64,000 bases of DNA from Promethearchaeota archaeon (GTDB taxonomy: Archaea; Asgardarchaeota; Lokiarchaeia; Sigyniarchaeales; SOKP01), in the NCBI GenBank assembly GCA_016926735.1, contig JAFGOA010000223.1:35147-99146 (forward strand), given 5' to 3'. Below the pieces are notes generated by a model that did not search any database, was not told where the DNA came from, and worked only from the letters and a program-made list of their open reading frames with translations. This document shows positions 6,893-42,242 of the stretch, in pieces (within the stretch, counting starts at the first letter, position 1; the number at the start of each line of letters is the position of its first letter). The position numbers and the translations under genes are program-made.

Positions 6893-7737
6893 TTAAAGTC
6901 CTTTTGGACCGTTTTCATATATGCTATATGCTTCATCAATAGACTTATTCTCATGAACTATAGCTCTTACTGCTTTAATCATGCCAATAGGGCTGTCACT
7001 TTGGAATATATTTCTTCCCATATTTGCGCCTATAATTATAAAAAATAGTTATAGTCTACGCCGACAGCTCCTTTATCAATAGCATTCCTTGCCATAATTA
7101 AAGCATCACGCTCCTCAATCTTCTTTCCACCAGCTATTACAACCGGTACTGGAGCGATAGAAGTGACTTCGTCGAAGTTCTCACAATAATATGTTTTTAC
7201 AAAAGTGGCACCTATTTCTGCTGCCATTCTACTTGCCATACCCAAATATCTTGCATCTCTAACCATTTCCCGTCCAACTGCTGTTACTGCTAAGACTGGA
7301 ATACCATAATCTTGTCCCCAATTTACAATCTTAGTTAAATTCATTAAAGATTGTTTTTCAAATTCACCACCTACAAAGATGGAACAGGTAATTGCTGAAA
7401 CATTTAATCTTATCGCATCTTCAATTGTAACATTTATTTCTTCATTTGAAAGTTCTTTTAACATACTTGCTCCGGCAGATACTCTTAGAACGATAGGTAC
7501 ATCAAAATCCGGTGAAACACAATTTCGAAGCATACCTCGTGTTAACATTAAAGCATCAGCATATTCAAAAAGGGGTTCTAACTTCTTAAAAGATTTTAAC
7601 ATTCCTGGGATATTGCCAAAATATTCATGAGTATGTATTAATTATACATATTTTCCATGATCGACAGCAAGCATGACGCAATGCCCAGATTTAGGTTTAA
7701 TTATTCGGGATAATCTATTTTGCATTCCCCAATCCAT
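6893..7737 (-). CDS. lsrF: LsrF/DhnA-type class I aldolase/thiolase in three exons (7737-7654, 7623-7056, 7023-6893), 260 aa after splicing
   Basis: Exon 1 [13 protein letters not shown]...MLAVDHG; exon 2 YFG...ATFVKTYY...VVIAGGKK...GAVGV; exon 3 [24 protein letters not shown]; 84+568+131=783 nt, in frame. Confidence 0.88.
7024..7055 (-). other. Candidate 32-nt BHB intron 2 of the aldolase gene
   Basis: mRNA GCGU-AG^A-CUAUAACUAU UUUUU AUAAUUAUAG-GCGC-AA^A; splicing gives GGC GUA GAU AUG GGA (GVDMG). Confidence 0.85.
7624..7653 (-). other. Candidate 30-nt BHB intron 1 of the aldolase gene
   Basis: mRNA CAUG-GA^A-AA UAUGUAU AAUUA AUACAUA CU-CAUG-AA^U; splicing gives GAU CAU GGA UAU UUU (DHGYF); contains an in-frame UAA. 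Confidence 0.85.
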
Positions 7738-7862
7738 AGTTTTATCACTTATTTCTTATAATAATTTTATTTTGATATCGTAATAAGTAATGAAATTATT
7801 ATAAATTTTAAGTTTAATAGCTAAAATAAGATATTTTAAAAATTTGTATTAAATATTGTTTT

Positions 7863-8126
7863 TTATTTCAATTCTGTTGTTTTGGTTGCCAAAATAAGAT
7901 CTATTTTTTCATATCCTCTAATTATACCCTTTTGATCGATAAATACAACGAATTGATGATCAGAACAGACAATCCCTGCAGGAACATGTATTTTAACACA
8001 GCCAGATTCTTTTTTTGAAAAAATTTCTGTTGGAATTTTAACTATTTTATCAATTCCGCAAGTTGGACAAGATATATTGAACTCTCTCATGATTGATTCT
8101 AATTTCTTATAATTAATATTTAACAT
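7863..8126 (-). CDS. Small putative zinc-binding protein
   Basis: CPTC ... CSDH ligand pattern. Confidence 0.6.
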   Translation of the reverse strand: MLNINYKKLESIMREFNISCPTCGIDKIVKIPTEIFSKKESGCVKIHVPAGIVCSDHQFVVFIDQKGIIRGYEKIDLILATKTTELK

Positions 8127-8216
8127 TTTTTCTTACTTAGATATATTAAATACTGAGAAGTCAAATAAAAATGTTCACTTTTCCTATGAAATAAAGGAAA
8201 AAAAATTAAAAAAAAA

Positions 8217-10850
8217 TTATTCTCTTTTTAGAATTTGTGAATTTTGAGTTGTGTATACAAACAATATAATTAGTATCATTGGTATAATCCCAATAAAAAT
8301 GATACTATATATTCCTTCTAAAAGGGTACTATCAAAAACTATTGGTATAAATAGAGTACCGAAAACATTGAAACAATAGTGAATAATAATACAAGGGATC
8401 AAGCTTCTTGTCTTAAAATAGGTATAAGATAGGGTAATACCCATAAATGAAGCATATATTATTTGTTCAACTGTTGATAAAGGAGATTCACCAATAAGTG
8501 TTAGAAAATTGATTAGATGAGATAATCCAAATAGGAGTCCACACATTATAATGGTATTAATAGTATTATATTTTTCTTTAAATATTGATGTATTTATCCC
8601 TCGGAATGCTATCTCTTCCCAAATAGCTGGAATTAACATATATAGGAAAATAAAAGCTCCAAGTCCAAAATAGACCGTATCTAAAATATGGAAAATCCTA
8701 TCAAAACTAAATGTATAGTTACCAAATATTAAACTTCCCATATATAATGAGAATACAATGATTAAAAAGGATATGATTCCAATTAAAATATTTTTTATAT
8801 AGTTTTGTTTGTTAGTAATTTTGATATCCTTTAAATATTGGTTTAATTTTTTCGATCCATATGGAAGTGACAACCATTTAGGAACTATTATAATAAAAAT
8901 TAATGCTAAAACGCTAAATTCTGTAATTGGACCAACTATTCTCCTTATATTATTAAAACCTATTGGATCTATTATTGGATTTATGAATAATGATATTGTT
9001 AAATAGATTAAATTCAATACAATAAAGGGTAAACACCAATATAAAAGCAAAACAGCAATAGCTCCAAAAATAGGATTTTTTCTCAATGATCCTCCTGTTA
9101 TATATGATTTATATCCTTTAAAAGAAGGAAACATCTTATCGAATGCAACAAATAACACACATAAAATTATTCCACCAATAAGTAACATAGCAGATGCTAA
9201 GAACCAAACTTCCATATATATTGAAGCTAAAACCATTATTATCGTAAAATTCAAGAATACAAGTCCTAAATTCATAAGACCAATTAGAAGCCATTTTCTT
9301 ATCTTCTTTTCTTTATAGATTTCTTCTGTAATATATTTATATTTCATTTTGCCAAAAAGCATTATTTTCATCATAAATGCGATAAAAAGAAATCCTAAGG
9401 ATATAGGCAATGCACATAATCCTACTATCACAACCCAAAAGCTTTGTATGATTATTGAAGCGAATATAGTAGACACAATAAATGAAATTGATTGTATTAT
9501 GATCATTAGTATTAATTTTGCTTTTGCTTGATCTCTTGGAAGAATTGGTAAGGAAGAGGTAATTGCAAATCCTGATTCTTCCATATTCATCAATCCCATC
9601 ACAAGCATAAGTGGATTCATAGTACTTATTATAAGTAAACTAACCATTAAAAATGATAATAGTTGTATATTAAGATCTGATACTTCTGTTAATCCTGAAG
9701 AGAATGAAATGATCATAATAATGGTCATGATCATTGGCATGATTAATAACATAGCTGATTGAGGATCTCTTGCAGCTGTTGTCAAATCTTTTTTAATATA
9801 TGCTTTTATTGGACCATATTTTGCTACCTCAATCTTTATTTCTTCAATATTTAGATCTTCGATTTTTCTTTTATATTTCTTTTCTTTTCGCCCTCCAATA
9901 ACAGCTGATAATGATTTTAATGCTTTTCTACTCATAAGATATGTTATTCCTAAAAATAATAGAAATCCAATAGTAGAAGTCGCCCATAATGATAATGATG
10001 TATTTGTTGGAGATATAAATAATGATATGAAATAAATTGGCGCGAAAGGATATGGAATTAAACTCAATATAAGGTTCCAAATATTTGTATATGGAGATAA
10101 CGAAAAATAAGCAAGAGTACCTTCTAATGTAAAAAATACTAATTGTAATGTAATATTCATTCCAATAGAAAGACCAATAATCACACTAAATACTAAAATT
10201 TTCATTCTTGTAGATTTTTTTGAAGTGGTTTCAGGATTGAATATTACTCTGCTTACTCTTTCTCCAATGAAAATTAAGAAACATAAACAAAAAATGGCAT
10301 TTGGAATTGAAATTAAGAAACTTAAAAATGTTAATACTAAATTATGGGTAAATATAAACATCATTATTGGTATAGCTAAGCATAATGAAATTAATTGGAG
10401 ATCTATACTCCTAAATAAAGTCATGAAAGCATATTTTCTCAATTTTGGTTTTGATATTGGCAATGTTCTTAACCAATAGAAAGATTCACCCGACATATAT
10501 GCTCCCATTGTATATAATCCAAATAAAACTAGATATGATAAATAGGATGTCATTAGTATAGAAAAAATTATTCCATAAGTGATTACTGTTATTTCCATAT
10601 TACTATTGGGAACCAATAAATCTAAAACATTAGGACCACTTACAAGATATATTAATGGTAATAAAACTATCATAAAAGAACTAATTATTTTAAGGAGCAC
10701 TACCATATTACCTATATATTTCTTATTTTTCTCACATTTTTCCAAAAAACTGGCTTGTCTTGAACCTGCTTGTTTCATTTGGGCTTCATAAAAAACCTCG
10801 TGAGAAATAAATTTCGCCATAGAATAATATTCTATAAATTTGTTTTTCAT
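8217..10850 (-). CDS. ABC exporter permease fused to a C-terminal CPBP (CAAX/Abi) intramembrane protease domain
   Basis: Multi-TM protein downstream of an ABC ATPase; C-terminal EEIAFRG, FGLSH and IIHYCFN CPBP motifs. Confidence 0.8.
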   Translation of the reverse strand: MKNKFIEYYSMAKFISHEVFYEAQMKQAGSRQASFLEKCEKNKKYIGNMVVLLKIISSFMIVLLPLIYLVSGPNVLDLLVPNSNMEITVITYGIIFSILMTSYLSYLVLFGLYTMGAYMSGESFYWLRTLPISKPKLRKYAFMTLFRSIDLQLISLCLAIPIMMFIFTHNLVLTFLSFLISIPNAIFCLCFLIFIGERVSRVIFNPETTSKKSTRMKILVFSVIIGLSIGMNITLQLVFFTLEGTLAYFSLSPYTNIWNLILSLIPYPFAPIYFISLFISPTNTSLSLWATSTIGFLLFLGITYLMSRKALKSLSAVIGGRKEKKYKRKIEDLNIEEIKIEVAKYGPIKAYIKKDLTTAARDPQSAMLLIMPMIMTIIMIISFSSGLTEVSDLNIQLLSFLMVSLLIISTMNPLMLVMGLMNMEESGFAITSSLPILPRDQAKAKLILMIIIQSISFIVSTIFASIIIQSFWVVIVGLCALPISLGFLFIAFMMKIMLFGKMKYKYITEEIYKEKKIRKWLLIGLMNLGLVFLNFTIIMVLASIYMEVWFLASAMLLIGGIILCVLFVAFDKMFPSFKGYKSYITGGSLRKNPIFGAIAVLLLYWCLPFIVLNLIYLTISLFINPIIDPIGFNNIRRIVGPITEFSVLALIFIIIVPKWLSLPYGSKKLNQYLKDIKITNKQNYIKNILIGIISFLIIVFSLYMGSLIFGNYTFSFDRIFHILDTVYFGLGAFIFLYMLIPAIWEEIAFRGINTSIFKEKYNTINTIIMCGLLFGLSHLINFLTLIGESPLSTVEQIIYASFMGITLSYTYFKTRSLIPCIIIHYCFNVFGTLFIPIVFDSTLLEGIYSIIFIGIIPMILIILFVYTTQNSQILKRE

Positions 10851-10865
10851 ATAGGTTTGCCTCTG

Positions 10866-11678
10866 TTATTTATTATTAAAAGATTCTCGTAATTTTTTTA
10901 TAATTTCCATTACAGAGATATCTTGATCAGTTAATCTTAAAAACACATCTTCTAAACTTGCTCCTAATTTATTTGATTGTTTGCGTAATTCATCTATAGT
11001 GCCTATTCCTACCATTTTACCTTTACTAATGATTCCAATCCTATCACATAGTTCTTCAGCTATTTTCATAATATGGGTCGAAAATAAAACAGCTCCTCCA
11101 TTCTCTATATGCATATCTAATATTTCCTTAAAGACTTTAACTGATTTTGCATCCAATCCTGCTAAAGGTTCATCTAAAATCAATATTTTTGGATTATGTA
11201 TTATTGAAGCGATAATTTGCATTTTTTGCTTATTTCCATGAGATAATGTATCTAAAATTTGTTCATAATATTGAATTGCTTCAAAACTTTCTAAATATTC
11301 TCGTAACATCTTTTGTGTCTTGGAAGGATTTAATTTTCTTATTGAGGATATAAAATTAAATAAATCCTTTGTAGTTAAAGATCTAAATATCAATGGTTCT
11401 TCAGCAACATATCCAATGTGCTCTTTTATTTTAACATCTTCTCTTTGAGGGTTCATTCCAAAAATATTTATACTTCCTTCATTTGGTTCTAGAAGGCCTA
11501 GTAGTAATTTAATAGTTGTAGTTTTTCCTGCTCCATTTGGTCCTAATAAACCAAATATTTCTCCTTTTTTAACATTAAATGAAATACCATCAACGGCTTT
11601 AGTTTGAACATGTTGATTATTTATATTTTGTTCAAAATATTTTTTCAAATCTTGAACTTGAATTAATGTTTCTGTCAT
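10866..11678 (-). CDS. ABC transporter ATP-binding protein
   Basis: GPNGAGKTT, LSHGNKQK, ILDEP, H-loop. Confidence 0.95.
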   Translation of the reverse strand: MTETLIQVQDLKKYFEQNINNQHVQTKAVDGISFNVKKGEIFGLLGPNGAGKTTTIKLLLGLLEPNEGSINIFGMNPQREDVKIKEHIGYVAEEPLIFRSLTTKDLFNFISSIRKLNPSKTQKMLREYLESFEAIQYYEQILDTLSHGNKQKMQIIASIIHNPKILILDEPLAGLDAKSVKVFKEILDMHIENGGAVLFSTHIMKIAEELCDRIGIISKGKMVGIGTIDELRKQSNKLGASLEDVFLRLTDQDISVMEIIKKLRESFNNK

Positions 11679-11857
11679 TTTTTCTCAATTTAAATTAATA
11701 TTAGTTAATATATGTCAATATATTACACTATATAAATATTATTATTCGTACGTATATTACTCTTAGATGTCTTATATTATATATTTAATAATAAAATAAT
11801 TGTAATAAGAAAGAAATATATTTATATATTTTCTATTAGGGGGAATTAGAATAAAAA

Positions 11858-12799
11858 TCATTTTTCTCTAATAATCATAATTATAGAGAGTACTATAATA
11901 ATCGTACCAATTAAGTGATATATTGTAAATAATTCTCCTAAAATAATCATTGAAAAAATAGCTGTTACAATTGGGGTAGGTGCCATTATGATTGTTGCTT
12001 TAGAGACCTCTAGATAATTAAGTGATGAATACCAGCATAAAAGATCAATTCCATAAGCTAATGCCATAGCAATGAAAATTAATTGATTATAGGGATTTAA
12101 AAACAATTTAAAATTTTCTATTGGAAAAAAGATTATATAAAGAATAATTATAAAAATTCCATTCATAAAATTTCGGAATAGAACCAATTGACTGGGTAAA
12201 ATTTGAGAATTGTTTAATATTGGTTTAGTTATAGAATGAGCTAGCATCCATAACATTGATGTAATTATTATTAGAATTACTCCTAAATTAAAATTAAGAA
12301 GATTGAATTGACCTTGAGTTGTTGAAATAATCAGCCCTGTCATTAATATAAACGAGAAAAATATTTGTTTCCGAGTCACTTTTTCTTGATTAATTAAATA
12401 TCCAAATAGCAATCCAAAAAGAATAGTAGTTTTTTGAGTGAGAGCTCCATTCACAGCTCCTGCTATATCAAGCCCAGTAAAATATAGAATTTGTGAGATA
12501 GAAAAGCTTATTCCGATATATAGTAGAAAATTAGCATTTTTCTTTTTTTTCCAACTATATAGAAGTGAATTATTCAAATGAAATTGATTTGGTTCTTTTA
12601 AAAGTTGATTTTTTAGTTTTCTTCTATGAATTAACGTTATAGGAATAAAAAGTATTGCTTGATAGAGACACGTTATCCCTGTAAAAAAATAAGGATCTAA
12701 AGCCTCATCACGACCTAAAGCAATAATGGGTTGTAGTCCAACTAAAATCATAGCTATGAAGGCATATGATAAACCAATACTTAATTTTTTATTTTTCAC
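11858..12799 (-). CDS. DMT/EamA family transporter
   Basis: About 10 TM in two repeats; FSMIILGELFT...IGTIII C-terminal signature. Confidence 0.85.
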   Translation of the reverse strand: MKNKKLSIGLSYAFIAMILVGLQPIIALGRDEALDPYFFTGITCLYQAILFIPITLIHRRKLKNQLLKEPNQFHLNNSLLYSWKKKKNANFLLYIGISFSISQILYFTGLDIAGAVNGALTQKTTILFGLLFGYLINQEKVTRKQIFFSFILMTGLIISTTQGQFNLLNFNLGVILIIITSMLWMLAHSITKPILNNSQILPSQLVLFRNFMNGIFIIILYIIFFPIENFKLFLNPYNQLIFIAMALAYGIDLLCWYSSLNYLEVSKATIIMAPTPIVTAIFSMIILGELFTIYHLIGTIIIVLSIIMIIREK

Positions 12800-13005
12800 G
12801 CTACAATTTGAAATCTGGCAAGGTTAATGAATTTTTAGAAATTATTCACATCGATAAAAGTAATAGTCTGTAATTATTTTTCTCTTGACGTCGATTTGTA
12901 AAAATTATCTTCGGTGATTTATTTGTTACAGTTATCTGAAATTTATAAAAGAATATAAATATAGGATTTTTATATATAACCAAATTTTGACATAAGTGAA
13001 AAGTT

Positions 13006-15192
13006 TTGATATTAGGAGAATTAAGATACAATCATCAAAATATGAAAAGAGGGTATACAAACAGAACTCTTTATATTAATCTTACCAAAAAGGAAATTAA
13101 AATAAAATCTGTCTCTGATGAAATGAAAGAGAAATTTATTGGAGGAAGGGGTTTTGATATTTGGTTAATGTGGAATAGTTTACCAAAAGATCGAATAGTC
13201 AAGTGGAATGATCCTGAAAATGAAATATGTTTGGCAACTGGGCCTCTTGGTGCATCTACGTATTATCCTGGAGGGGGAAAATCAATAGTTACTTCAATAT
13301 CTCCTTTAACAGGTATAATTATCGATAGTAATGTAGGAGGTTATTTTGGGTCATATTCGAAATATTCTGGTTTCGATGCAATTGAGATTCAAGGTAAAGC
13401 AGAAAAAGAAGTTCTCATCTTTATAAATGGACAGGATCATATTATTCAATTAATAGAAGCAAATGATTTTGAAGAATTATCCGATAATTCCCATTTGCTT
13501 ACCCAACAATTAACAGAAAAATTTGCAAAAGAACCCTCAGAAAAAGAAAAACAATTAGTTTCAGTTGTATCTACAGGACCAGGCGCTAAATATACAAGAT
13601 GGGGATTGTTAAATTTCTCTTGGTATAATAGGAAAAGAAAATGGGCTTCATGTAAACAAGCAGGTCGAGGAGGGATTGGAACTGTTTTTGCAGATAAAAA
13701 AATTAAAGCGCTTATATGTAGGGCTCCTATTTATGATGTAAAAAGAAATAACCCAGCGAATCCAGAGAAATTAGCAGAGTTAGGTAAGAAACATAATAAA
13801 AATATCATAAAATTTGATCCTACAATGAATCAAATGAGATTTGTTGGAACTGGCTATCTACCTGATATTATGAATATAACCGACCTACTTCCAACTGAGA
13901 ATTATCGTTTTGGACAACATAGAGAAATTAAGGATAAAAATATTCCATACAAAAGACAAGTATGGTTTGAATTATTTGGAGAGCATACCGGAAAAGGAGC
14001 GGATGGGTGTTGGCTTGGATGTTCTGTGAGCTGTTCACATTGGATTAGTGATTATGAAGTTATGACAGGACCTTTTAAGGGTCAGAAAGTTATAGTTGAT
14101 GGTCCTGAATATGAAACAATTGCAGGATGTGGTTCCAATTGGGGTGTGTGGGATCCAAAATGGGTAGTAGAAGTAAATTTTTATTGTGATACCTATGGTC
14201 TAGATACAATTGGAGTTGGTACTGGTATAGCATTTGTAATGGAATGTTATGAAGAAGGGATAGTTAATAAAGATATTACTGGGGGTCTTGAATTAAATTT
14301 TGGGAATATTGAGGCTGCTATAGAATTAATACATCAAATGGCTCGAGGAGAAGGATTTGGTGTTGTTGTTGGTCAAGGAATAAAGAAAATGAAAAAGAAA
14401 TTTGCAGAAGAATACGGAGGAGATCCTCAATTTTTACAAGATATTGGAATGGAACATAAAGGATTAGAATTTTCAGAATATATAACAAAAGAAAGTCTTA
14501 CTCAGCAAGGAGGTTATGGTTTAACAAATAAAGGACCTCAACATGATGAAGCGTGGTTAATTTTTGAAGATATTGTACGACACTCAATACCTACTTTTGA
14601 AGATAAGGCAAAAGCACTCTATTGGTTTCCCCTTTGGAGAACATGGTTTGGGTTATGTGGACTATGTAAATTACCTTGGAATGATGTTCCTCCTCCATCT
14701 AATTTTGAATTACCTATTAAAATGGCCGGTGAATTACTCCAAGCTAAAATCCCACAACATGTTCAATGGTATGCTGATTATTTTTCAGCAGTAACAGGAA
14801 TTCATACAGAACCAGATGATTTGATACAAATGTCTGAGAGAGTATATAATCTTCAGAGAATTTTTAATATAAGACAAGGTAAAGGACTAAAGGAGCATGA
14901 TTCAAATTTACCATATCGAGCAATGGGACCGGTAACAAAAATGGAATATGAAAGTCGACAAGAAAGATATGATAATCAATTAAAAGAACTTGAAATAGAT
15001 GTGAAAGACCTATCAACTGAGGAGAAAATGAAGATTCTAAGAAAAAATAGAGAAATTCAATATTTTAAACTTCAAGAAGCAGTATACGAGAAAAGAGGAT
15101 GGAATGCTTTTGGTTGCCCAACTATCGATCTTTTAAAAAGATTGGAAATAAATTATGAAGATCTTATCCATGTAATTAAACCATATCAGTAA
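13006..15192 (+). CDS. aor: Tungsten-type aldehyde:ferredoxin oxidoreductase family protein
   Basis: FIGGRG, SPLTG..DSNVGG, AGRGGIG, CWLGC, DGPEYET, CDTYGLDTI, LFNIR-like motif; start could be ATG 13042. Confidence 0.92.
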   Translation: MILGELRYNHQNMKRGYTNRTLYINLTKKEIKIKSVSDEMKEKFIGGRGFDIWLMWNSLPKDRIVKWNDPENEICLATGPLGASTYYPGGGKSIVTSISPLTGIIIDSNVGGYFGSYSKYSGFDAIEIQGKAEKEVLIFINGQDHIIQLIEANDFEELSDNSHLLTQQLTEKFAKEPSEKEKQLVSVVSTGPGAKYTRWGLLNFSWYNRKRKWASCKQAGRGGIGTVFADKKIKALICRAPIYDVKRNNPANPEKLAELGKKHNKNIIKFDPTMNQMRFVGTGYLPDIMNITDLLPTENYRFGQHREIKDKNIPYKRQVWFELFGEHTGKGADGCWLGCSVSCSHWISDYEVMTGPFKGQKVIVDGPEYETIAGCGSNWGVWDPKWVVEVNFYCDTYGLDTIGVGTGIAFVMECYEEGIVNKDITGGLELNFGNIEAAIELIHQMARGEGFGVVVGQGIKKMKKKFAEEYGGDPQFLQDIGMEHKGLEFSEYITKESLTQQGGYGLTNKGPQHDEAWLIFEDIVRHSIPTFEDKAKALYWFPLWRTWFGLCGLCKLPWNDVPPPSNFELPIKMAGELLQAKIPQHVQWYADYFSAVTGIHTEPDDLIQMSERVYNLQRIFNIRQGKGLKEHDSNLPYRAMGPVTKMEYESRQERYDNQLKELEIDVKDLSTEEKMKILRKNREIQYFKLQEAVYEKRGWNAFGCPTIDLLKRLEINYEDLIHVIKPYQ

Positions 15193-15229
15193 AAATTGGG
15201 TTATAAAAATTTTAAATTTTCTTTTTCTT

Positions 15230-23625: not shown

Positions 23626-23985
23626 TTAGTGATGACAACTTGGTCCTTCTAATTTGTCCAATTTATCACTAAGAAGTAACTCTATATTTTCTTTTACAGT
23701 TTTCTCAGATATTCCTTGATAAAGATTAATTCCTACTTGAATAAATCCCATATAAGGTCTACCTCCAATCCCTCCAATAATCATATCAGTTACATCTCTA
23801 TCTTTCATATTCAAAACAGGTTCCATACAACTTGAATGACCTTTATTTTGTAGTAAAAATGCAATCTCACCAATGTGATTATCATTGGTGTTGATCCCAA
23901 TAAAAAAATTACAATGACCAAAATGATCAGACATAACATCATCTATTTTTGAACCATCTGAAGGAATAGCTATTATTCTTTTCAT
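23626..23985 (-). CDS. NifB/NifX-family protein
   Basis: HFGHC, GGIGGRP. Confidence 0.85.
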   Translation of the reverse strand: MKRIIAIPSDGSKIDDVMSDHFGHCNFFIGINTNDNHIGEIAFLLQNKGHSSCMEPVLNMKDRDVTDMIIGGIGGRPYMGFIQVGINLYQGISEKTVKENIELLLSDKLDKLEGPSCHH

Positions 23986-29306: not shown

Positions 29307-30662
29307 TTAGTCTAAATCATCAAAGATATTATAGATTTCATCGATTATATTATCAAATTCAACTATTTTTTGTTCTTCAGTTACCATATTCTTTATCGTG
29401 ATTCTATTTTGTTCCATTTCTTTTGGTCCTAATATTAAAGAAACTCTAACACCAAGTTCACTTGCTTTTTTAAGTTGATTTCCTAAATTTTCAAATCTAT
29501 AATCAATTATGCATGGAAATTCTTCATATCTTAATTCTCTTGCTATTTTGTGAGCATATTGAGATTGTTTTATATTTATTGAAGCAATATAAATAACATC
29601 AGAATAATCGCTATTCATAATTTCCTCTGGAATTAGATTATATGTTTCAAGAAAAAGTTTTAACATTAATAATCCCATTCCAAATCCAATTCCTGATAAT
29701 TCTTCATTTGAGAATAAAGATAATAAATTATCATATCTTCCTCCACCAAAAATCGCTCGTCTATTTTCTTTACCAGTATCAAAAACCTCAAAAACAGTAC
29801 CAGTATAATAATCTAGACCTCTGACAACATTTGATGCAAATGAGCAATATTCTGTGATATCTAAGTCTTGTATAAGATTTTCTATTTCAGATAATTCTTT
29901 ATAACCTTGACTCTCAAGAAATTGATCTGGGATATTATTAAATTTATTAAGAACTTCTTGTATACTTTTTGCATCCTTTAGGATTAAAATACCTTGTTTT
30001 ATTATTTCTTCTTTGAAATTATCATTAATGGTCTCTAAAAATTCCTTTTCTTCTAATTTATTGGATTTATCTAAAAGATTATATATCAATGATATTTTAT
30101 TCTTTGGAACCTTTAAAATAAAATCACAAATTGCATCAATAAATCGTCTATTATTGTAATATATTTGAAATTGTTCTGAAGTTGCCCCAAAACTCGTTAA
30201 AATATCTATAATTATATTCAAGATTTCTAATTCTGCATAAAGACTGTTTTCACCTAAGATATCAACATTGAATTGAATAAATTCTCTTCTTCTTCCTCGT
30301 TGTGTATCTTCATATCTATAGCAAGTTGGAACAGAATACCATCTAATTGGTTTTTTAAATTCTTGACTTTTTCTTGCAATCATTCTTGCAAGTGTGGGGG
30401 TGATTTCAGGTCTTAAAATAAGTTTTTTATTTCTTTTATCTTTAATCCAATATGCTTGTTCTTGGACTAATTCTTCAGATGATTTTGCTGCAAAAATTTC
30501 AATTGGTTCTAATAAAGGACCAGAATATTCTTCATAACAATAAACCTCAATGATATCTCTAATTTGGTCTATTATCCAATTGTCCAATCTTAAATTTGAA
30601 GGATATGAATCCTCCATACCTTTAAGAGGTTGTGTCGAAAATCTTTTGTTTTCTTCTTCCAT
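29307..30662 (-). CDS. hisS: Histidyl-tRNA synthetase
   Basis: LRPEITP, RYE..QRGRRREF, VRGLDYYTG, GGGRYD. Confidence 0.96.
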   Translation of the reverse strand: MEEENKRFSTQPLKGMEDSYPSNLRLDNWIIDQIRDIIEVYCYEEYSGPLLEPIEIFAAKSSEELVQEQAYWIKDKRNKKLILRPEITPTLARMIARKSQEFKKPIRWYSVPTCYRYEDTQRGRRREFIQFNVDILGENSLYAELEILNIIIDILTSFGATSEQFQIYYNNRRFIDAICDFILKVPKNKISLIYNLLDKSNKLEEKEFLETINDNFKEEIIKQGILILKDAKSIQEVLNKFNNIPDQFLESQGYKELSEIENLIQDLDITEYCSFASNVVRGLDYYTGTVFEVFDTGKENRRAIFGGGRYDNLLSLFSNEELSGIGFGMGLLMLKLFLETYNLIPEEIMNSDYSDVIYIASINIKQSQYAHKIARELRYEEFPCIIDYRFENLGNQLKKASELGVRVSLILGPKEMEQNRITIKNMVTEEQKIVEFDNIIDEIYNIFDDLD

Positions 30663-31530: not shown

Positions 31531-31553
31531 ATACTAAAGGAGGATAATAAATA

Positions 31554-32918: not shown

Positions 32919-33029
32919 CTATACAGTAATTTTTTGACAATAGAATGCTCTTTTTCCGTTAATATAAACATTTACTTTATCCTCTTCTTTCTGGATCATA
33001 ATTTACTCGTTGATCTCAAATTCCTGCAT
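32919..33029 (-). pseudogene. Decayed gene fragment MQEFEINE*IMIQKEEDKVNVYINGKRAFYCQK
   Basis: Hand translation with an internal TAA; resembles from memory the FKINEYITLKLE..NIYVNG N-terminal domain common in lokiarchaeal proteins. Confidence 0.45.
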
Positions 33030-33053
33030 ATTTTGTTTTATTTACACTTTATT

Positions 33054-33824: not shown

Positions 33825-34308
33825 TTTTACCCCTTCTTAATTTTTTCTTTAATTCTATTTTTATTTATTAATTCTAGTCTTAACCTATATTGAATACAAC
33901 AGAAATATATCTTTTATTGTAAAATTTCTTAGGATTAACATCATATTTATAAAATATATTAATATTGATATCTTTTTTTAACTTCTGTTGAAATAATGGT
34001 ACTAAATTCAGTTCTCTTATCCTCGCTTTAATCCTATAAGGTCTAATAATACAAATAAAGCTTCTCGCTTTAGAAATAATTAAATTTCGAATTATTTGTG
34101 AAATTTAGTCTTTGGGAATTGTAAATAACTTTAATTTTTGATAAAATTTACTAAGAATCTTACTAATATTATATTTTTAGACAAAAAGTTTTAAAATATC
34201 ATAAAACAACTATAAATCAAAAAAATACAATATTAAAATGAATTTCTCAAAAATTTTTGTTAATTTTTAAAAATTAACGTTATTTACAAAGAAATTAGCA
34301 GATTTATC

Positions 34309-35238
34309 ATGTCTTTTATAAGCAATCTTATAACAGTAATAAAAGAAAAGAAAAGTGTTGTATGTATGGGACTTGATCCCCAACTCGAAGGAGTTAATAG
34401 AATCCCTGAATGTTTAATAGAACAATATAATAACCCAAATGATATTATATTAAATTTTAACAAAGAGTTAATTGAAAAAACTTATGATTTGATTCCAATA
34501 ATAAAACCTCAAATTGCATTTTATGAAAAATATGATGCTTTAAATGCTTTAAAGGAAACAATTAAATTTGCTCATAAAAAAGATTTATTAGTTCTTTTAG
34601 ATTCTAAAAGAAATGATATAGGTGCTACTTCAGAAGCATACGCTTTTTCTAATTATGAAGTTTTTAATGCTGATGCATGTACTATCAATGCCTATTTAGG
34701 TTATGATTGTATCAAACCTTTTCTTCAATATGAAAATAAAGGTAAATTCATTTTAGTTAAGACTTCTAATCCAAGTAGTAAAGATTTTCAAGATTTATTT
34801 AGTTTAAATTTAGAAAATATTTCAAATGAGGAATATGAAATAGCTATTGATAAATTGAATCCAGATTTAAAACTAAAACGAAATTACATCCAAATGGCTG
34901 AGCTTATTCAAAAATGGGGAGTGAATTTAGAAAGATATAACGATTATCATAATTTAGGGATTGTTGCAGGTGCAACATTTCCAGAAGAATTAAAAATTCT
35001 GAGAAAAATAGTTAAAAATTCTTTTATTCTAATTCCGGGATTTGGAGCACAAGGCGCTACTGCAAAAGATGTAAAATATGGATTTAATCAAGAAGGATTA
35101 GGAGCAATTGTTAATTCTTCAAGAGGAATTACCTATGCATATGTGAATAATAAGTTTAAACCTGAGAAATTTGCTGATGCAGCAAAAAATGAAATCAAGA
35201 GAATGAATTTAGAAATAAAAAAAGAAATTAATCTATAA
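34309..35238 (+). CDS. pyrF: Orotidine-5'-phosphate decarboxylase
   Basis: GLDP, KPQIAFYE, DSKRNDIGAT, KTSNP, PGFGAQG, NSSRGI. Confidence 0.96.
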   Translation: MSFISNLITVIKEKKSVVCMGLDPQLEGVNRIPECLIEQYNNPNDIILNFNKELIEKTYDLIPIIKPQIAFYEKYDALNALKETIKFAHKKDLLVLLDSKRNDIGATSEAYAFSNYEVFNADACTINAYLGYDCIKPFLQYENKGKFILVKTSNPSSKDFQDLFSLNLENISNEEYEIAIDKLNPDLKLKRNYIQMAELIQKWGVNLERYNDYHNLGIVAGATFPEELKILRKIVKNSFILIPGFGAQGATAKDVKYGFNQEGLGAIVNSSRGITYAYVNNKFKPEKFADAAKNEIKRMNLEIKKEINL

Positions 35239-35356
35239 CTATTTTTTTATCATATATTGATATTATTTGATTTATATTCTATTTTGAATATAATATTTGT
35301 TTCATGAAAAAATGAAAATATTGTATTATCAGGAAAATTAAAAAAGAAATTAATTG

Positions 35357-35827
35357 TTATTCTTGGTCTTTTGATTCATTAAAATTTCTTCCCAAATGAG
35401 CAATTTCAAAATATTCTTTATATTTTTCAATTTCGTCATGAACTTCTTTCAATTCTTTAGTTTCTAACATTTGATCTAAAGTTTTTTTGGTTGATATATA
35501 AATTTCAGGAATGAAAGTGTTGACTTGAGAAAGTTGATAAGCTAAATCTTTAATGGAAGATAAATCTAATCTTAAATCAATTTCTTTTTGTTTAATTTGT
35601 TCAATAATTTTCTTTTCAAGTTTTCTTCTTGATATATTACTCCAAGTTATTTCATATGCGAAATAATTCACACTTTGAACTGCTTCCGTTAAAAGAGCAG
35701 TTCCAGTTGCAATTGCAATACTTCCTGTAATTATATATGCTGTCAAAGTACCTAAAACTAAAGTAAGTGCTCGATAAATTAAACTTTTAACAAGTGTTTG
35801 CTTCCATTCTATTTTTCGTGATTTCAT
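35357..35827 (-). CDS. DUF2061-like membrane protein
   Basis: LVKSLIYR...YFAYEITW N-terminal hairpin. Confidence 0.65.
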   Translation of the reverse strand: MKSRKIEWKQTLVKSLIYRALTLVLGTLTAYIITGSIAIATGTALLTEAVQSVNYFAYEITWSNISRRKLEKKIIEQIKQKEIDLRLDLSSIKDLAYQLSQVNTFIPEIYISTKKTLDQMLETKELKEVHDEIEKYKEYFEIAHLGRNFNESKDQE

Positions 35828-35994
35828 TTAAAATACCATTCTCATTCATTTATAATAGTTGTATTCTGAGATATTAACTATATTAAAATCACCATTATTA
35901 AATCTTATTTGAAAATATCTTAACGACTTACTAAAAATGAGTATATTTCATCTTATTTAATTCAAGAATAAGACCTAGCGTTCAAAAAATGTAT

Positions 35995-36393
35995 TTAAGG
36001 AGATAATATCTGAACTAATGACCATATTTCCATAAACATAAAGAAACCAAGAGGAATCATAAAAACCAAGAAAATGAATATAGATTTTCCAATTCCCACT
36101 TCATACAAAATATTTACTAGATTAATATTTATAAAAATCGCTAAAAATAATACTGGAAACATCTCTGGAGGAGGACCCTCATCATTAAATGCTCCAGAAA
36201 ATCCTGCTAATATTATTGGAATTGAACATAACATTACTACACCAACTTGCAGTCCAATACTTATTAGAATCCATTTTATATCTGTTCTTTTTTCTGCTTT
36301 AGTTATTTTCAAACATATCTTTAAAACAATAATTCCTAAAATTACAAATAAAATTGGTGCTACGCTTGCTATTATAATTGGTTCTTCATCCAT
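35995..36393 (-). CDS. Small membrane protein
   Basis: Four hydrophobic segments. Confidence 0.6.
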   Translation of the reverse strand: MDEEPIIIASVAPILFVILGIIVLKICLKITKAEKRTDIKWILISIGLQVGVVMLCSIPIILAGFSGAFNDEGPPPEMFPVLFLAIFININLVNILYEVGIGKSIFIFLVFMIPLGFFMFMEIWSLVQILSP

Positions 36394-36577
36394 AATTTAT
36401 CTCAATTATTTTTAAATTACTTTCTTATAAAACTAATAAAAAAGATTTTTGATTTAAATTTATTTTTTATTTATAGAGATGATGTTTTAAATAATATAAA
36501 ATATTTTGAATTAGTAAATAATAATATCAGAATTATTTGGAGGTTACCAATAAAAAATAAATAAAGATTGATATGCA

Positions 36578-38539
36578 ATGGAAAAAAAAGAAAACAAAGA
36601 TATACGGAGTTTTGTTGTTGTCTGTCGATGTGGTATTAACATTTCAGAAATAATCGATTGTCCTTCCCTAGTTGAATTCTCTAAAAAATTACCTACTGTT
36701 GTTGATGCTGATGAATATATTAGTATTTGTACTGAACCAGGTGCAGAATTTATAAAAAAAAAAATGACAGAAGCTAATGCCAATAGATTGATTGTTGTTG
36801 CTTGTACCCCTAAAACTCATGAACCTGTGTTTAAAACTGTTCTTGAGTCGATGAATTTAGATCCTTCTTATCTTGAATTTGCAAATATAAGAGAACATAG
36901 TAGTTTTGTTCATAGAAATGATATTGAAGGTGCTCAAAAAGTAGCTAAAGATATAGTTAAATCTGCTGTTGCAAGAGCATCCTTGTTAGAACCTATTAAA
37001 ATAAAAGAAGTAGATATCACCAAAGAAGTTTTAATACTTGGTGGAGGTGTTTCAGGGTTAACTTGTGCAATAGATCTAGCTGAAGAAGGGTATATAGTAC
37101 ATCTAGTTGAAAAATCTCCTACAATTGGAGGTAAGATGGCTCAATTAGATAGAACGTTTCCAACTGATGATTGTTCAATCTGAATTTTAGGACCAGTAAT
37201 GTTACAAGCAGCGAGAACCAAAGGACTAAATATATACACATATAGTGAATTAGAGAACGCTAATGGATTTGTCGGGAATTTTGATGTAAAAATCAGAAAA
37301 AGAGCAAGATTTGTAACAAATGATTGTAATGGATGTGGTGCTTGTGAACCTGTTTGCCCTGCAATTAGTTCAAATGAATTTAATGAAGGATTAAATCCAA
37401 GATCAGCAATTTATACAGCATTTGCTCAAGCAGTACCCTCTATCGCACAAATTGATATGACAAAATGTATAAAATGTGGTCTATGTCAAAAAGCATGTGA
37501 ACTAAATGCTATAGATTTTGATCAAAAAGATGAAATTCAAGAGATAAAAGTAGGAGCAATTGTCGTAGCTACTGGTTGGGATGAATATATACCTCCTATT
37601 GGAATGTTAGGATTTAATATATATCCTAATGTTATTACTCAAATGAAATTAGAGAGAATTCTTGCCCCAAATGGTCCTACAATCGGACATTTAGCAAGAC
37701 CTTCTGATGGAAAAACACCAAAAAAAATCTTATTCATTCAGTGTGTTGGTTCACGAGATTTAAATAAAAATACTTATTGTAGCTCAGGAGTATGTTGTAT
37801 GATTTCAATAAAAAATACAAAGCTTATTAAACAACATTATCCTGATTGCGAAATAACCGTAGCATATATGGATATTCGTGCAGCAGGAAAAGATTATGAA
37901 GAGTATTTTACAGCATCTAGAAAGGAAGGGATAAGATATATCAGAACTAATATTAGTAAGATAGAAGAAAATCTTGAAAATCACAATTTAATCATTAAAA
38001 TGCAAAATACTCTCAGAGATTCTAAGAAATTTCAGGAAAATGAATTTGAAATGGTTGTACTTTCTTGTGCTATGACTCCCCCTAGAGGAATAAAAAAAAT
38101 ACAAACCTTACTAAAATTAGAGACAAGCAGAGATGGCTTTTTCAAAGAATTTCATGCAAGATTGAATCCAATTGATACAAAAATACCTGGAATTATTCTT
38201 GCAGGGGTTAGTCAAGGTCCTAAATCTATAGCTGAATCGATATCTCAAGGAAGAGCCGCAGCCTCATCCGCAGCTCGATTAATGAGTAAGGATAAATTTA
38301 GAATTGCTCTAATTAGAGCAAAAGTAGATAAAGAAAAATGTGCTAAATGCGGTTTATGTGAATTTAATTGCCCTTATAATGCTATTACTTTGAAAGATGA
38401 TGGCGCAGATGTTGATGAAATTTTATGTAGAGGATGTGGTTCATGTTTAGCTAATTGTCCATCAGAAGCAATAAGTTTAAGATATTATAAAGAGAATCAG
38501 TATGAAAAACAAATAGATGCGATTCTTGAGAATACATAG
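36578..38539 (+). CDS. hdrA: Heterodisulfide reductase subunit A-like selenoprotein (Sec at TGA 37181-37183), 653 aa
   Basis: Two track ORFs are in the same frame across one TGA in TFPTDDCSI-U-ILGP, a conserved Cys position; GGGVSG FAD motif; ferredoxin motifs. Confidence 0.93.
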
Positions 38540-38547
38540 AGAGGTTG

Positions 38548-39024
38548 ATGATTATTACAAAATCAGATTTAAAAATTATTAGCTTTATGTGTTGGAAATG
38601 AGGATATGGTGCTGGAGATATGGCAGGAACAATTCGTGCTCAATATCCCGCTACAATCAGACCTATTCGAATTAATTGTACTGGAAGAGTCACTCCAAGT
38701 TTAATGATGCGTACATTAGGAAAAGGTGCTGATGGAATTATAGTAGCTGGATGATATCCTGGAGAATGTGATTTTGAAACAGGTAATCTTGTTGCTGAAA
38801 AAAATGTTCAATATGTAAGAGAAATTTTGAAAACAATTGGACTCTCCGAAGAACGAGTACACATGTTTAATTGTAGTGCAGCAGAAGGACAGAGATTTCA
38901 AGAGGAGATTACTAGAATTTCTGAAATAATTGAGACACTTGGCAACAACCCTTTTAAAGAATCTAATACATTAAAAAAAGTATCTGATTCTAAAGAAGGA
39001 AAAAAAATAAACCGAATTGAATGA
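38548..39024 (+). CDS. mvhD: MvhD/VhuD hydrogenase delta subunit with two Sec (TGA 38599, TGA 38752), 158 aa
   Basis: Hand translation: FMCWK-U-GYGAGD...RINCTGRV...GADGIIVAG-U-YPGEC...CSAAEG. Confidence 0.92.
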
Positions 39025-39058
39025 TTTTTATGAAGAAAATTTGGTCATAAAATGACAA
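39017..39058 (+). promoter_or_regulatory. Eukaryote-like SECIS element (kink-turn core)
   Basis: AUGAU / UGAC core closing a perfect 8-bp stem UUUUAUGA:UCAUAAAA with an A-rich loop, immediately 3' of hdrA-mvhD. Confidence 0.7.
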
Positions 39059-39217
39059 CCTTGTGATGGTTTATTCGGTATTTTCAATTTATAACCTAAT
39101 TTTTAACTAAAAAAATTATTTAGATAATTTATTATCAACTCAAATTAGAATAAAAGAAAAATTTAATTTAAATGAAGAAAAATAAAAAATAATCTAATAA
39201 GAATAATTCAAACTATT

Positions 39218-40528
39218 ATGTCAAATGTTCAGAAAGACAAAATCGAAAAATTATATGAAAAAGCAGAGCAACTTTATAAGGCAATTCAATATAAAAAGGC
39301 AGGTAAGACTTATTATCGCGTGGGAGAAAGCTTTTATGAAATAAAAGAATTTAAAATTGCTCAAGAAGCTTACTTTAAAGCAGCAGATTCTTTTATACAA
39401 AAAGAAGATCATGAAAAAGTCATAAAATCTCTAAGAAAATCTATAGATTCTTATTTAGAATTAGATGATATTGAAAATGCTCTTAAATTGTTGGAAAAAT
39501 CAATTGATTATATAGAGAAATTAAATAATCAAGATCTTAGAGAATCTTCTTATATCTTATTCTCATTCCTATCTTATTTATGTTATTATGCATTAGGTGT
39601 TCCAGATAAGGGGCTCAACGTTGTTAAAAGAGCTCAAAAGAGAGTAGATAAAGAATATTTCAAACAAAATTCTACAATCCACCTTATAACTAATTTTACT
39701 ATCGCTTTAAGAGATAAAAAGAAAAAAAAAATTGATAAACTAACTGAAGATCTGCATCATATACAATTATATAATGGTGAGCTAAAATTAGTTAAAAATA
39801 TTCTCTTAATTGCAACAATTAATGTTGATAATACGCCTGAAATTAAATTAGATAAAGAAGATTACATAACAAATGAAATTATCCAAATGAATATGGATAT
39901 TAATATTCAATCTATGTTAGAGACCGCAAAAAAAGATTTCTTTGATTTTAGAATAGATGAAATTACGATTAAAGGAATTAAAATAAATCTTACTGACAAT
40001 TTATCAATTCAAACAAAACCTAGATTACCTTTAATTCTTGACTTGGAAAGTAATTTTAACTTTAATTTTTCTATAAAACCACAATTTATTACAGAGATGA
40101 GTACAATAGGTCCTATTAAAATTGAATTTTTGATAAATAATCTATACTCATTTTATATTGAAAATAGAAATGAATTTCCAATAAATCTTTCAGCTCCTCC
40201 AACTTCTCTTGAGATCTCCTTAAAAAGTTTGAAAACTCCTTTGATTGATAAGACTTTTCCACTAGAAATATTGATAGAAAATAAAAGTGAGGGAGATGCT
40301 TCTGATTTGAATATAAATATTAAATTTCCCGAACAAATTAGAGTTATTAGAGGTACAATTGAAAAACAGATATATTCTCTAAGATCTAATGAAACAATTA
40401 AATGGGAAATCAGCTCAAGACCTCTTGAAGCAGGAGATTTTGAGATTCAAATTGATTTTAGCTTTAAAGATCCTGATAATAATAATATAGAAGAAAAAAT
40501 AACATTTCCATTAGCAATAAAATTGTAA
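39218..40528 (+). CDS. TPR/SNAP-like helical protein with C-terminal Ig-like domains
   Basis: N-terminal A..Y..A TPR-like helices; C-terminal beta-sandwich (IENKSEGDA...PLEAGDF). Confidence 0.6.
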   Translation: MSNVQKDKIEKLYEKAEQLYKAIQYKKAGKTYYRVGESFYEIKEFKIAQEAYFKAADSFIQKEDHEKVIKSLRKSIDSYLELDDIENALKLLEKSIDYIEKLNNQDLRESSYILFSFLSYLCYYALGVPDKGLNVVKRAQKRVDKEYFKQNSTIHLITNFTIALRDKKKKKIDKLTEDLHHIQLYNGELKLVKNILLIATINVDNTPEIKLDKEDYITNEIIQMNMDINIQSMLETAKKDFFDFRIDEITIKGIKINLTDNLSIQTKPRLPLILDLESNFNFNFSIKPQFITEMSTIGPIKIEFLINNLYSFYIENRNEFPINLSAPPTSLEISLKSLKTPLIDKTFPLEILIENKSEGDASDLNINIKFPEQIRVIRGTIEKQIYSLRSNETIKWEISSRPLEAGDFEIQIDFSFKDPDNNNIEEKITFPLAIKL

Positions 40529-40537
40529 GAATTCGTT

Positions 40538-40560
40538 TATTAGGAAATAAATTCCTAATA
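40538..40560. terminator. Inverted repeat TATTAGGAA-N5-TTCCTAATA (terminator or operator)
   Basis: 9-bp perfect stem 10 nt after a stop codon. Confidence 0.35.
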
Positions 40561-40673
40561 TATTATATTTTAAATTATTAGTTAAAAATAAAGAACTATT
40601 TTTATAAAAGGATCAATTTAATAGTATGTTCTAAGCTTATTATTATACAACATAATGTAAAAAAAATGATAGT

Positions 40674-42242
40674 ATGAGATTAATAGTAAAAAAAATAAAT
40701 TTTGAAACTGGTAATATGAAAGACGTTGTGCTTAACCATAATGATGCTGAAAAAATAGGACAAAAAGTTGGAGAACGTGTTATTATTCAAAATATAAATA
40801 CTAAAAACTTAAGTGAAAAATATTGGGTTGCTATATTAAAAATTTCATATTCAGATTCTATAGTAGCTCCAGGAGAAATAGGAATTTTTGCTGACACATT
40901 TAAAGATATAAAAAATTTAAAAGAAAATTCCAAAGTCTCAGTTTTAGCTGCTGAAGCACCTACATCATATAAAAATATCCAAAAAAAAATTAAAGGTTTT
41001 AAACTTAATTCTGATGAAATTCATAGTATTATAAAGGATGCAGTATCTGGGAAATTGTCACAAATAGAAATTGCATCATTTATTACTGGTATTTCTATTA
41101 ATAATATGGATTCTGATGAAATGACAGCATTAACATTAGCAGAAGGTAACAGTGGAAGAAAATTTGATTTTGGTCCGGAAGTCTATGACAAACATAGTAC
41201 ATAAAATTGCACTCTGTAATTTTAGCTAAAAGGTGGAGTTCCGGGTAATAAAGTAACACTTATAATCGTTCCAATAATTGCAGCTGCAGGATTAATTATT
41301 CCGAAAACAAGTACTCGTGCTATAACATCTCCTTCAGGTACAGCCGATTCAATGGAGGTTCTAGCGCCAATCTCTTTTAATTCAGAAGAAGTAAAAGAAT
41401 TTATCTCAAAAAGAGGAGCATGTATTATTTGGGGAGGTGCTTTAGATATAGCACCTGCAGATAATGTTTTTATAGAAGTTGAACGTCCACTTCATTTTGA
41501 TCCTATGGGTTTAATGATACCTTCAATTTTAGCTAAAAAACTTAGTATGGGTGTAAAAAACCTAGTATTAGATGTACCTATTGGTAAAGGAACAAAATTT
41601 CCTACACTTAAAGATGGACAAAATTTTGCTCTCATATTCAATCAAATTGCCAAAAATATTGGTATTCATAGTGAGTGTGCTTTAACCTTAGCTCATCAAC
41701 CTGTGGGTCACTGTGTTGGACCGGCAATTGAAGCTCAAGAAGCAATTTCTCTTCTGAGGGACTATAAAGTAGGACCTAATTCTTTAATAGAAAAATCAAC
41801 TTCATTAGCAGGTATTCTTTTAGAGATGGCAGGAAAAGCTAAAAATGGAGAAGGACAATTATTAGCTAAAGATATCTTAAAATCAGGGAAAGCTTATACA
41901 AAAATGAAAGAAATTATTGAAATGCAAGGTGGTAATCCTAATATTTTGCCAGAAGATATAGAATTAGGTCCATATAAACTTGATATCTATGCTCAAAAAT
42001 CAGGTCATATCACTCAAGTGGATAATGCTTTAATTAATCAAATTGCAAAAGCAGCAGGCTGCCCCTATTCTAAAACTTCAGGAGTTAGAATTTATAAAAA
42101 ACAAGGTGCTAAAATAAATAAAGGTGATATTATTTTTACAATCTATTCTAATACTGAAAATAAGTTAAAAAGAGCTGAAAAATTATACAATAGTTCTGGA
42201 GGGCCTATTATATTAGGAGGAATGCTCATAGAACGTATTTAA
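40674..42242 (+). CDS. deoA: AMP phosphorylase (thymidine phosphorylase family) in two exons (40674-41200, 41231-42242), 512 aa after splicing
   Basis: DKHST|GGVPGNK, PKTSTRAITSPSGTADSMEVL, SILAKKL; both track ORFs share one frame, interrupted by a 30-nt insertion with three stops. Confidence 0.92.
41201..41230 (+). other. Candidate 30-nt BHB intron in AMP phosphorylase
   Basis: UAGU-AC^A-UAAAAUUGC ACUCU GUAAUUUUA-GCUA-AA^A; splicing gives CAU AGU ACA GGU GGA (HSTGG). Confidence 0.87.

Follow-up and report, generated by a model that had tools for sequence, protein, structure and literature searches.

Introns of the bulge-helix-bulge (BHB) type in archaeal protein-coding genes were previously known, in the literature that we found, essentially from a single case, the cbf5 pre-mRNA intron of Crenarchaeota, reportedly treated by Watanabe in 2002 and by Yoshinari in 2006. 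We analyzed a window of 64,000 nucleotides (nt), meaning the whole stretch of DNA under study (contig JAFGOA010000223.1, positions 35,147 to 99,146 of the forward strand), from the assembly of a Promethearchaeota archaeon (GCA_016926735.1, referred to here as G000; 3.88 Mb in 238 contigs, 26% G+C, 99.3% complete). In this window three short inserts interrupt two enzyme genes, encoding an aldolase of the DhnA/LsrF type and an AMP phosphorylase. Judged from the sequences of this genome and its relatives, the inserts are very likely archaeal BHB introns in pre-mRNA, of the relaxed HBh' form, and part of a set of at least nine in eight protein genes. The mechanism is the known one of the tRNA splicing endonuclease (EndA) acting on BHB motifs; what is new is the number of introns, the genes affected and the lineage. 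The original prediction had taken the host to be an Asgard archaeon, and its closest public relatives (86–97% protein identity) are metagenome-assembled genomes of Promethearchaeota, a phylum that the NCBI taxonomy places in the kingdom Promethearchaeati, the Asgard group.

The closest described case remains the cbf5 intron (PMC2738675), which the original prediction had named as the known example in mRNA, rightly so by the accessible part of that report. According to the same part, the two situations have in common (i) a hetero-oligomeric splicing endonuclease, (ii) lineage-specific gain and loss, and (iii) gene predictions confused by the intron. Unlike the cbf5 intron, described there from one gene and one phylum, the introns proposed here number at least nine, spread over eight unrelated housekeeping genes in a single genome, with at least 13 occupied sites across the family. 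They differ further in their Asgard host and in their uniform, minimal size (29–32 nt in G000, up to 40 nt in relatives).

Two groups of tRNA introns are also comparable. Non-canonical tRNA introns with relaxed hBH or HBh' motifs are cut by EndA of the (alpha-beta)2 or epsilon2 type (PMC4090602; PMC5829648; accessible text of both). The inserts resemble these in the 4-base-pair (bp) helix, the 3-nt bulges, the movable splice site and a host genome that appears to encode the broad-specificity type of enzyme. Unlike in tRNA introns, the host RNA would be an mRNA, so that the exon strand of the helix consists of constrained codons and the intron strand follows their synonymous changes. The tRNA genes of Asgard archaea themselves are heavily interrupted by introns, with repeated independent gains (PMC11291895; bioRxiv 10.64898/2026.10.13.758758; available sections). 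Phylum, repeated gains and presumably the enzyme are shared with the introns proposed here, whereas the two reports, in the sections available, treat tRNA genes only; in those of the second the term 'mRNA' occurs 0 times and 'protein-coding' once, of neighboring genes. A literature search, with subscription journals and supplements largely outside its reach, returned only the cbf5 intron and the Asgard tRNA introns, and nothing on introns of the BHB type in protein genes of Asgard archaea.

The inserts and the enzymes they interrupt

The three inserts were found at the coordinates and with the lengths that the original prediction had given them. In unspliced form, the aldolase gene (7737–6893, minus strand) consists of three open reading frame (ORF) pieces and the AMP phosphorylase gene (40674–42242, plus strand) of two. 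In the following list of features H denotes the helix between exon and insert, and a slash marks the predicted cut.

7654..7737, minus strand: aldolase (DhnA/LsrF type) exon 1, 28 codons, ending in the motif ..DHG; orthologues align
7624..7653, minus strand: predicted aldolase intron 1, 30 nt; H CAUG:CAUG, bulges GA/A and AA/U, inner hairpin with one mismatch
7056..7623, minus strand: aldolase exon 2; NF006081 positions 73–252
7024..7055, minus strand: predicted aldolase intron 2, 32 nt; H GCGU:GCGC, bulges AG/A and AA/A, inner hairpin of 6 contiguous bp
6893..7023, minus strand: aldolase exon 3, copy 1, stop codon included; NF006081 positions 252–288
40674..41200, plus strand: AMP phosphorylase exon 1; TIGR03327 positions 2–165
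41201..41230, plus strand: predicted AMP phosphorylase intron, 30 nt; H UAGU:GCUA, bulges AC/A and AA/A, inner hairpin of 10 bp
41231..42242, plus strand: AMP phosphorylase exon 2, stop codon included; TIGR03327 positions 167–500

Exact deletion of the inserts gives open ORFs of 260 codons for the aldolase and 512 codons for the AMP phosphorylase, in agreement with the view that both enzymes are otherwise intact. The family profiles run on across the junctions: exons 2 and 3 of the aldolase meet at position 252 of the NCBIfam profile NF006081 with neither gap nor overlap, and between the two exons of the AMP phosphorylase (positions 165 and 167 of TIGR03327) lies the split codon. The inserts are therefore true insertions relative to their families, placed to the base.

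The architecture that had been described as common to the three was seen in each of them: a 4-bp H helix, two 3-nt bulges, an AU-rich hairpin, A as the first base and AA as the last two. Upstream of the insert, the last six exon bases comprise the 4-nt strand H-a and two bulge bases. The insert itself supplies the third base of this bulge, the AU-rich hairpin h', the 4-nt strand H-b, which pairs with H-a, and two bases of the second bulge, whose third base is the first base of the next exon. A 4-bp helix flanked by two 3-nt bulges is the definition of an EndA substrate (PMC4090602, accessible text), and the predicted cut position, after the second base of each bulge, is taken by analogy from the tRNA 37/38 geometry of that source together with general knowledge. 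Among the nine introns of G000 the central helix is fully paired (4/4) in eight and has 3/4 pairs in one. The inner helix h' has 6–10 bp, or 8–9 pairs with one mismatch, in all introns checked, and the outer helix h, between exon and exon, has only 0–4 bp, so that the motif corresponds to the relaxed HBh' form and not to the strict hBHBh' one. The chance of a match to a strict BHB descriptor at a fixed position and length is about 8 in 10,000 (723,364 matches over 2 × 3.88 Mb × 119 spacings), and the geometry of the inserts is far beyond chance.

Conservation and covariation among relatives

A profile search for AMP phosphorylase covered 31 genomes of the order, 19 of them from the family of the window and 12 from three sister families. 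The gene is interrupted at the identical codon in 11 of the 19 family genomes (G000–G006, G009, G011, G014, and G015), by inserts of 29–31 nt, and is free of interruption in all 12 genomes of the sister families. A His codon with C in place of U at its end is matched by G in place of A as the last base of the intron strand (3 C-G and 8 U-A pairs, no mismatches), and both sides have changed in nine of the ten hairpin pairs. In the alignment of the 11 sequences, 94.1% of the cells are paired, compared with 26–46% when the partners are slid by 1–3 columns; double changes occur in 10 of 14 pairs, with a score that none of 500 shuffles matched. RNAalifold predicts the same helix, bulges and hairpin unprompted. 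Among the matches listed in a distant Asgard family, two AMP phosphorylase genes contain internal stops (G084:C261 and G127:C188), and these interruptions may be introns at other sites.

The 16 aldolase orthologues show three sites. Site 1 is occupied in four of them (G000, G001, G002, and G011), with hairpin pairs changed among the relatives and CGUG as the H-b strand of G002. At site 2, occupied in five (G000, G002, G007, G017, and G018), the helix GCGU:GCGC is replaced by GUGU:ACAC in G002 and by GCGU:ACGC in G017. The third site (AGGK/K) is occupied in G005 and G002, and eight of the 16 orthologues have no insert at any of the three. For the primase DnaG, 29 genomes gave a match, and 13 of them (12 in the family and one in a sister family) carry an insert of 29–40 nt at the site FGQ/TEG; seven differing H combinations occur, complementary every time.

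With the ends of the inserts set by protein alignment alone, H is fully paired (4/4) in all 33 copies (11 in AMP phosphorylase, 13 in DnaG, four at aldolase site 1 and five at site 2), and the numbers of H-a/H-b combinations are 4, 7, 2, and 3, respectively. In all three genes the intron strand of H follows synonymous changes in the exon strand, and orthologues lacking the insert are colinear to the base. The BHB intron proposed in the original prediction was thus borne out by covariation among relatives, namely by the compensatory changes in AMP phosphorylase and by the H-helix combinations at four sites. Orthologues with and without introns coexist, and on this comparison of sequences the introns are gained and lost within the family, clearly so from genus to genus.

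These comparisons also bear on the question of whether the inserts are removed at all. The genes could be truly split or dying, with the inserts retained and the pieces either translated separately and assembled or left as pseudogene fragments. Gene callers already report them in this way, as had been foreseen: public protein sets list the AMP phosphorylase as two proteins, one of 176 and one of 296 amino acids (aa). In addition, exon 3 of the aldolase begins almost at an ATG. Such a state is nonetheless highly improbable. In the downstream piece of the AMP phosphorylase the first start codon lies 40 codons beyond the junction, yet these 40 codons are 80–100% conserved among family relatives, and the profile search of G000 found no second full AMP phosphorylase. 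Neutral decay, which would bring dN/dS close to 1, was checked in the spliced AMP phosphorylase, and pairwise values of 0.03–0.16 (dS 0.2 to >2) indicate purifying selection over a long divergence. The spliced ORF is intact (512–513 codons) in 10 of the 11 intron-bearing genomes, and in the remaining one, G014, exon 1 is open in the profile search. A split gene would also leave the covariation between exon end and insert end, as well as the exact 3-nt bulges, without a reason, and it does not fit the base-to-base colinearity of orthologues lacking the insert.

A second alternative is that the ribosome skips the inserts in uncut RNA, as in the translational bypass ('hopping') over the 50-nt gap of phage T4 gene 60 and over the 'byp' elements of yeast mitochondria. 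The inserts are indeed short, hairpin-bearing gaps in coding sequence, and a stop codon follows directly after the presumed take-off point in AMP phosphorylase and within a few codons at other sites. The defining feature of bypass of the T4 gene 60 type is a match between take-off and landing codons. At the three sites of the window these codons are unmatched (GGA and UAU, GUA-G/AU, ACA and GGU), and the distance from the junction to the first stop varies. What is conserved and covaries is instead the 4-bp helix, with its 3-nt bulges, in which the exon end pairs with the 3' end of the insert; this is what defines a substrate of EndA (PMC4090602, accessible text). We consider bypass very unlikely, and the reading as BHB introns is retained below.

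The position of the cuts was examined with a set of five inserts known independently, from homology stops or gaps only: those of an elongation factor 2 (EF-2) paralogue in G002, G007, and G015, and those at aldolase site 3 in G005 and G002. A deletion of the observed length was slid through each region, and the open-frame placements were compared among the placements listed (in part for G015). For each insert, one placement among those listed combined a paired H helix (4/4; 3/4 in G005) with 6–8 hairpin pairs, and in all five cases this structure-compatible placement was the one yielding a family-consistent peptide. The claim that cuts after the second bulge base restore the family sequence held at every site tested, in the window and beyond.

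The three inserts in EF-2 paralogue 1 of the relatives (L140 of G002, L143 of G007, and L141 of G015) are each 30 nt long and of the BHB type. One lies at the P-loop (DHG/K), and two are located 6 nt apart near ..TD/SD/DEEQ.., which suggests either independent insertions or intron sliding. EF-2 matches that start at profile positions 31–33 (G001:C151, G002:C272, G003:C539, and G003:C283) suggest that the P-loop intron of the G000 gene is common to the genus.

The distribution of the inserts also bears on a third group of explanations, in which they are assembly artefacts or are removed by other means (DNA-level excision, a ribozyme or some other RNase). The insert of AMP phosphorylase recurs in 11 separately assembled genomes and that of DnaG in 13, with lineage-specific substitutions, which is not expected of an artefact. 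Their length of 29–40 nt is far below that of group I and group II introns, most sites lack associated repeats or a recombinase, and Rfam gave no match within the window. Explanations of this kind are hardly credible, and we return to introns cut by EndA.

The genome-wide set and the splicing machinery

Beyond the window, six further introns of G000 were accepted by family scans of the separate exons.

C143, 3050–3079, minus strand: predicted NadE intron, 30 nt; profile junction between positions 143 and 144
C151, 13293–13321, minus strand: predicted intron of a MoCF_biosynth protein, 29 nt; profile junction between positions 66 and 67
C192, 7776–7806, plus strand: predicted DnaG intron, 31 nt; profile junction between positions 26 and 27
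C188, 20431–20461, plus strand: predicted intron of an aEF-2 paralogue, 31 nt; profile junction between positions 31 and 33
C4, 54826–54855, plus strand: predicted IorB intron, 30 nt; profile junction consistent
C108, 9843–9872, minus strand: predicted intron of a ThiF/E1-like protein, 30 nt; downstream exon from profile position 32–33

The total of nine introns in eight protein genes, three of them in the window, is a lower bound resting on the BHB descriptor and on the candidates listed. Each of the nine has A as its first base; the last two bases are AA in seven introns, AU in one and UA in one. The cut rule gives profile-continuous products at eight junctions, and tblastn with peptides from the downstream exons of NadE, MoCF, DnaG, and IorB revealed no second copy in G000.

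The descriptor scan of the genome that had been proposed combined the strict descriptor with open frames, a hexamer coding score and a filter for the absence of a start codon. At loose settings it gave no excess over 10–16 control geometries, and such introns are therefore not present in hundreds. An excess appeared at a spacing of 27–34 nt with the A..AA signature (14 candidates, compared with 7–9 in control geometries) and with A..A. (25, compared with 13–19); the background consisted mostly of ordinary gene boundaries and spurious short ORFs. The scan was productive in yielding the six further introns once family scans were added, but the excess itself is confined to a restricted size and bulge signature. 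The expectation that three introns in 64 kb make them common in this genome was overstated, as the window holds three of the nine found in 3.88 Mb.

Several candidates of the scan were rejected. The BHB-like hairpin at 49991–50013 of the window (plus strand) spans the stop codon of hisG and the start codon of hisD and is a chance match at a gene boundary, and 54152–54175 of the window and several others are gene starts. On C110, positions 30298–30326 proved in the family scan to be the boundary between DUF655 and RrnaAD; candidates on C100, C168, and C56 had no family-scan support; and the apparent TAG inside the G000 aEF-2 match is only the edge of the intron. The candidates at 38737–38760 of the window and at 23906–23944 of C231 are in-frame TGA codons of FlpD/MvhD-like proteins and not introns. 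In the window this codon (38752–38754, plus strand; ORF 38602–39021) falls on a conserved Cys of a FlpD/MvhD-type hydrogenase subunit, and the Pfam match to the ORF is continuous when TGA is read as Sec or Cys. With a second such gene on C231, the sequences indicate that this is probably a selenoprotein gene.

Two further observations concern the introns and tRNA genes of the genome. A core of 16 out of 17 bases is alike in aldolase intron 1 (7624–7653) and in the intron of the ThiF-like gene (C108, 9843–9872). This best pair of introns scores 14; chance hairpins came up to this value in 25 of 400 sets, and the mean likeness of the pairs equals the background; since the likeness is borderline or at background level, a common sequence origin is not claimed. 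A run of aragorn showed a tight cluster of 21 tRNA genes on one G000 contig and a second cluster of six on another. Such clustering is atypical of archaeal chromosomes and may point to a mobile element or to a contig of foreign origin; the calls of aragorn are too unreliable for a comparison of tRNA-intron bulges.

From general knowledge of EndA and RtcB, splicing would proceed as follows: (i) a heterotetrameric (alpha-beta)2 EndA would cut after the second base of each bulge; (ii) RtcB would ligate the exons and circularize the intron; and (iii) the full enzyme would be encoded by the spliced mRNA only. The introns lie in highly conserved codons that are richer in G+C and able to give a stable H helix in this genome, whose G+C content is 26%. 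For EndA, G000 has two paralogues (C33 and C100; 203 and 202 aa), each matching PF01974/PF02778 with an N-terminal and a catalytic-type domain. One of them retains the catalytic Tyr, His and Lys and the other lacks the His, which suggests an alpha/beta arrangement of the two. The genome therefore appears to encode a cognate two-subunit EndA, in keeping with the enzyme that the original prediction had proposed as the cutter. By the accessible text of one report, Asgard archaea possess an (alpha-beta)2 EndA with an L1 loop, linked to a broad substrate range (PMC5829648).

Several points weigh against the interpretation as spliced BHB introns. RtcB (PF01139) was not found in the G000 assembly; of the 13 genomes searched, 11 encode it, among them the other three of the genus (G001–G003), and its absence from G000 is probably an assembly gap. 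The removal of the inserts, the precise positions of the cuts and the circular form of the introns are deduced here at the DNA level. With a canonical outer helix of only 0–4 bp, the second bulge is not closed as in textbook substrates, and H has only 3/4 pairs in the MoCF intron of G000 and in one relative (G005). Single-sequence folds were no better than shuffles for the three introns of the window (z of −0.9, −0.3, and −1.0); the minimum-free-energy folds give the helix, bulges and hairpin for both aldolase introns and not for the AMP phosphorylase intron, and thermodynamics by itself proves nothing for the BHB claim. Six of the nine introns of G000 were found through the BHB descriptor, so that their fit to the motif is not independent, and the upstream exon of the ThiF-like gene matched no family. 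As for transcripts, no run with RNA reads was found for positions 4000–12000 of the window, and two metatranscriptomes from the same study contain almost none of its sequence words.

Possible mobility of the introns and their meaning

The aldolase gene is followed by two features that raise the question of how the introns arose.

5560..6708, minus strand: LAGLIDADG-type homing-endonuclease-like ORF of 382 aa, directly downstream of the aldolase; typed from homologue annotations
5413..5543, minus strand: second copy of aldolase exon 3; identified by BLASTN to copy 1

The 382-aa ORF matches the Pfam family LAGLIDADG_3 (PF14528) below the cut-off (E 0.011; 16.4 bits against 22.5). It belongs to a large Asgard family of LAGLIDADG-type proteins: PF14528 is found in many of its 120 homologues, and NCBI gives two of these the name LAGLIDADG homing endonuclease. 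A PDB sequence search with the ORF gave no meaningful match, and no host-gene domain was seen in its longer homologues. The two copies of exon 3 are 81% identical over 156 positions, downstream bases included (BLASTN), and the similarity starts exactly at the first base after the 3' splice site. The endonuclease-like ORF and the second exon copy share one frame, with a stop codon and six further codons between them. An identical layout, with an ORF 63% identical, occurs in G007, a member of another genus (L089; G007:C16:2700-6200). In G002, G017, and G018 aldolase intron 2 is present and the layout was not seen.

A paralogue of the ORF (36% identity) stands on C95 (24329–29062, minus strand), with an SNF2-type helicase gene on one side and a duplicate of the C-terminus of this helicase, 91 aa long, on the other. 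The duplication there is marked by a 125-nt direct repeat (77.6% identity), and the cassette contains no mini-intron. Judged by the arrangement of the genes, an ORF of this kind with a duplicated 3' end looks like a mobile endonuclease cassette that brings along a replacement 3' end.

It is conceivable, if doubtful, that the mini-introns are, or descend from, mobile elements spread with free-standing LAGLIDADG homing endonucleases. Cleavage by the endonuclease would strike a conserved motif of the intron-less allele, and a 30-nt BHB intron would disrupt this target and so protect its carrier. Precedents are the 'collaborative homing' by an endonuclease gene beside a short intron (psbA of cyanophages) and endonucleases accompanied by a duplicate of the 3' end of the host gene (fungal mitochondria). 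The present case is like these in the LAGLIDADG-type ORF placed after the intron-bearing aldolase and in the copy of the last exon that starts from the splice junction. It differs from them in being known from gene layout alone and in that seven other intron-bearing genes lack such an ORF. The coincidence of the ORF insertion point with an intron site suggests a link between homing and the intron; the recurrence of the layout in G007 and the position of every intron in a most-conserved motif of its protein are also in line with this idea. On the opposite side, paralogues of the ORF occur in G000 only on C95, C163, and C49, so that the other seven intron-bearing genes have no such neighbor; a tree of exon-3 copies clusters the two G000 copies together, with no sign of import from another genus; and the introns share no significant sequence. 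If the idea were true, there would be in Asgard archaea a population of mobile mRNA introns, spliced by proteins and gained by a mechanism that can be traced.

Whatever their origin, the introns proposed here affect central genes, among them those of the DnaG primase, elongation factor 2, NAD synthetase and AMP phosphorylase, in the archaea closest to eukaryotes. Metabolic reconstructions and marker-gene sets of Asgard archaea will miss or truncate such genes, for which gene callers give fragments, and the intron sites are ready test substrates for Asgard EndA. The splicing of mRNA by proteins appears to reach further among the closest relatives of eukaryotes than had been recognized and, if the introns are spliced as we infer, mRNA splicing by a protein enzyme is a regular part of gene expression there. 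This has a bearing on how, before the rise of spliceosomal introns, an archaeal host could have coped with interrupted genes and with translation delayed after transcription.

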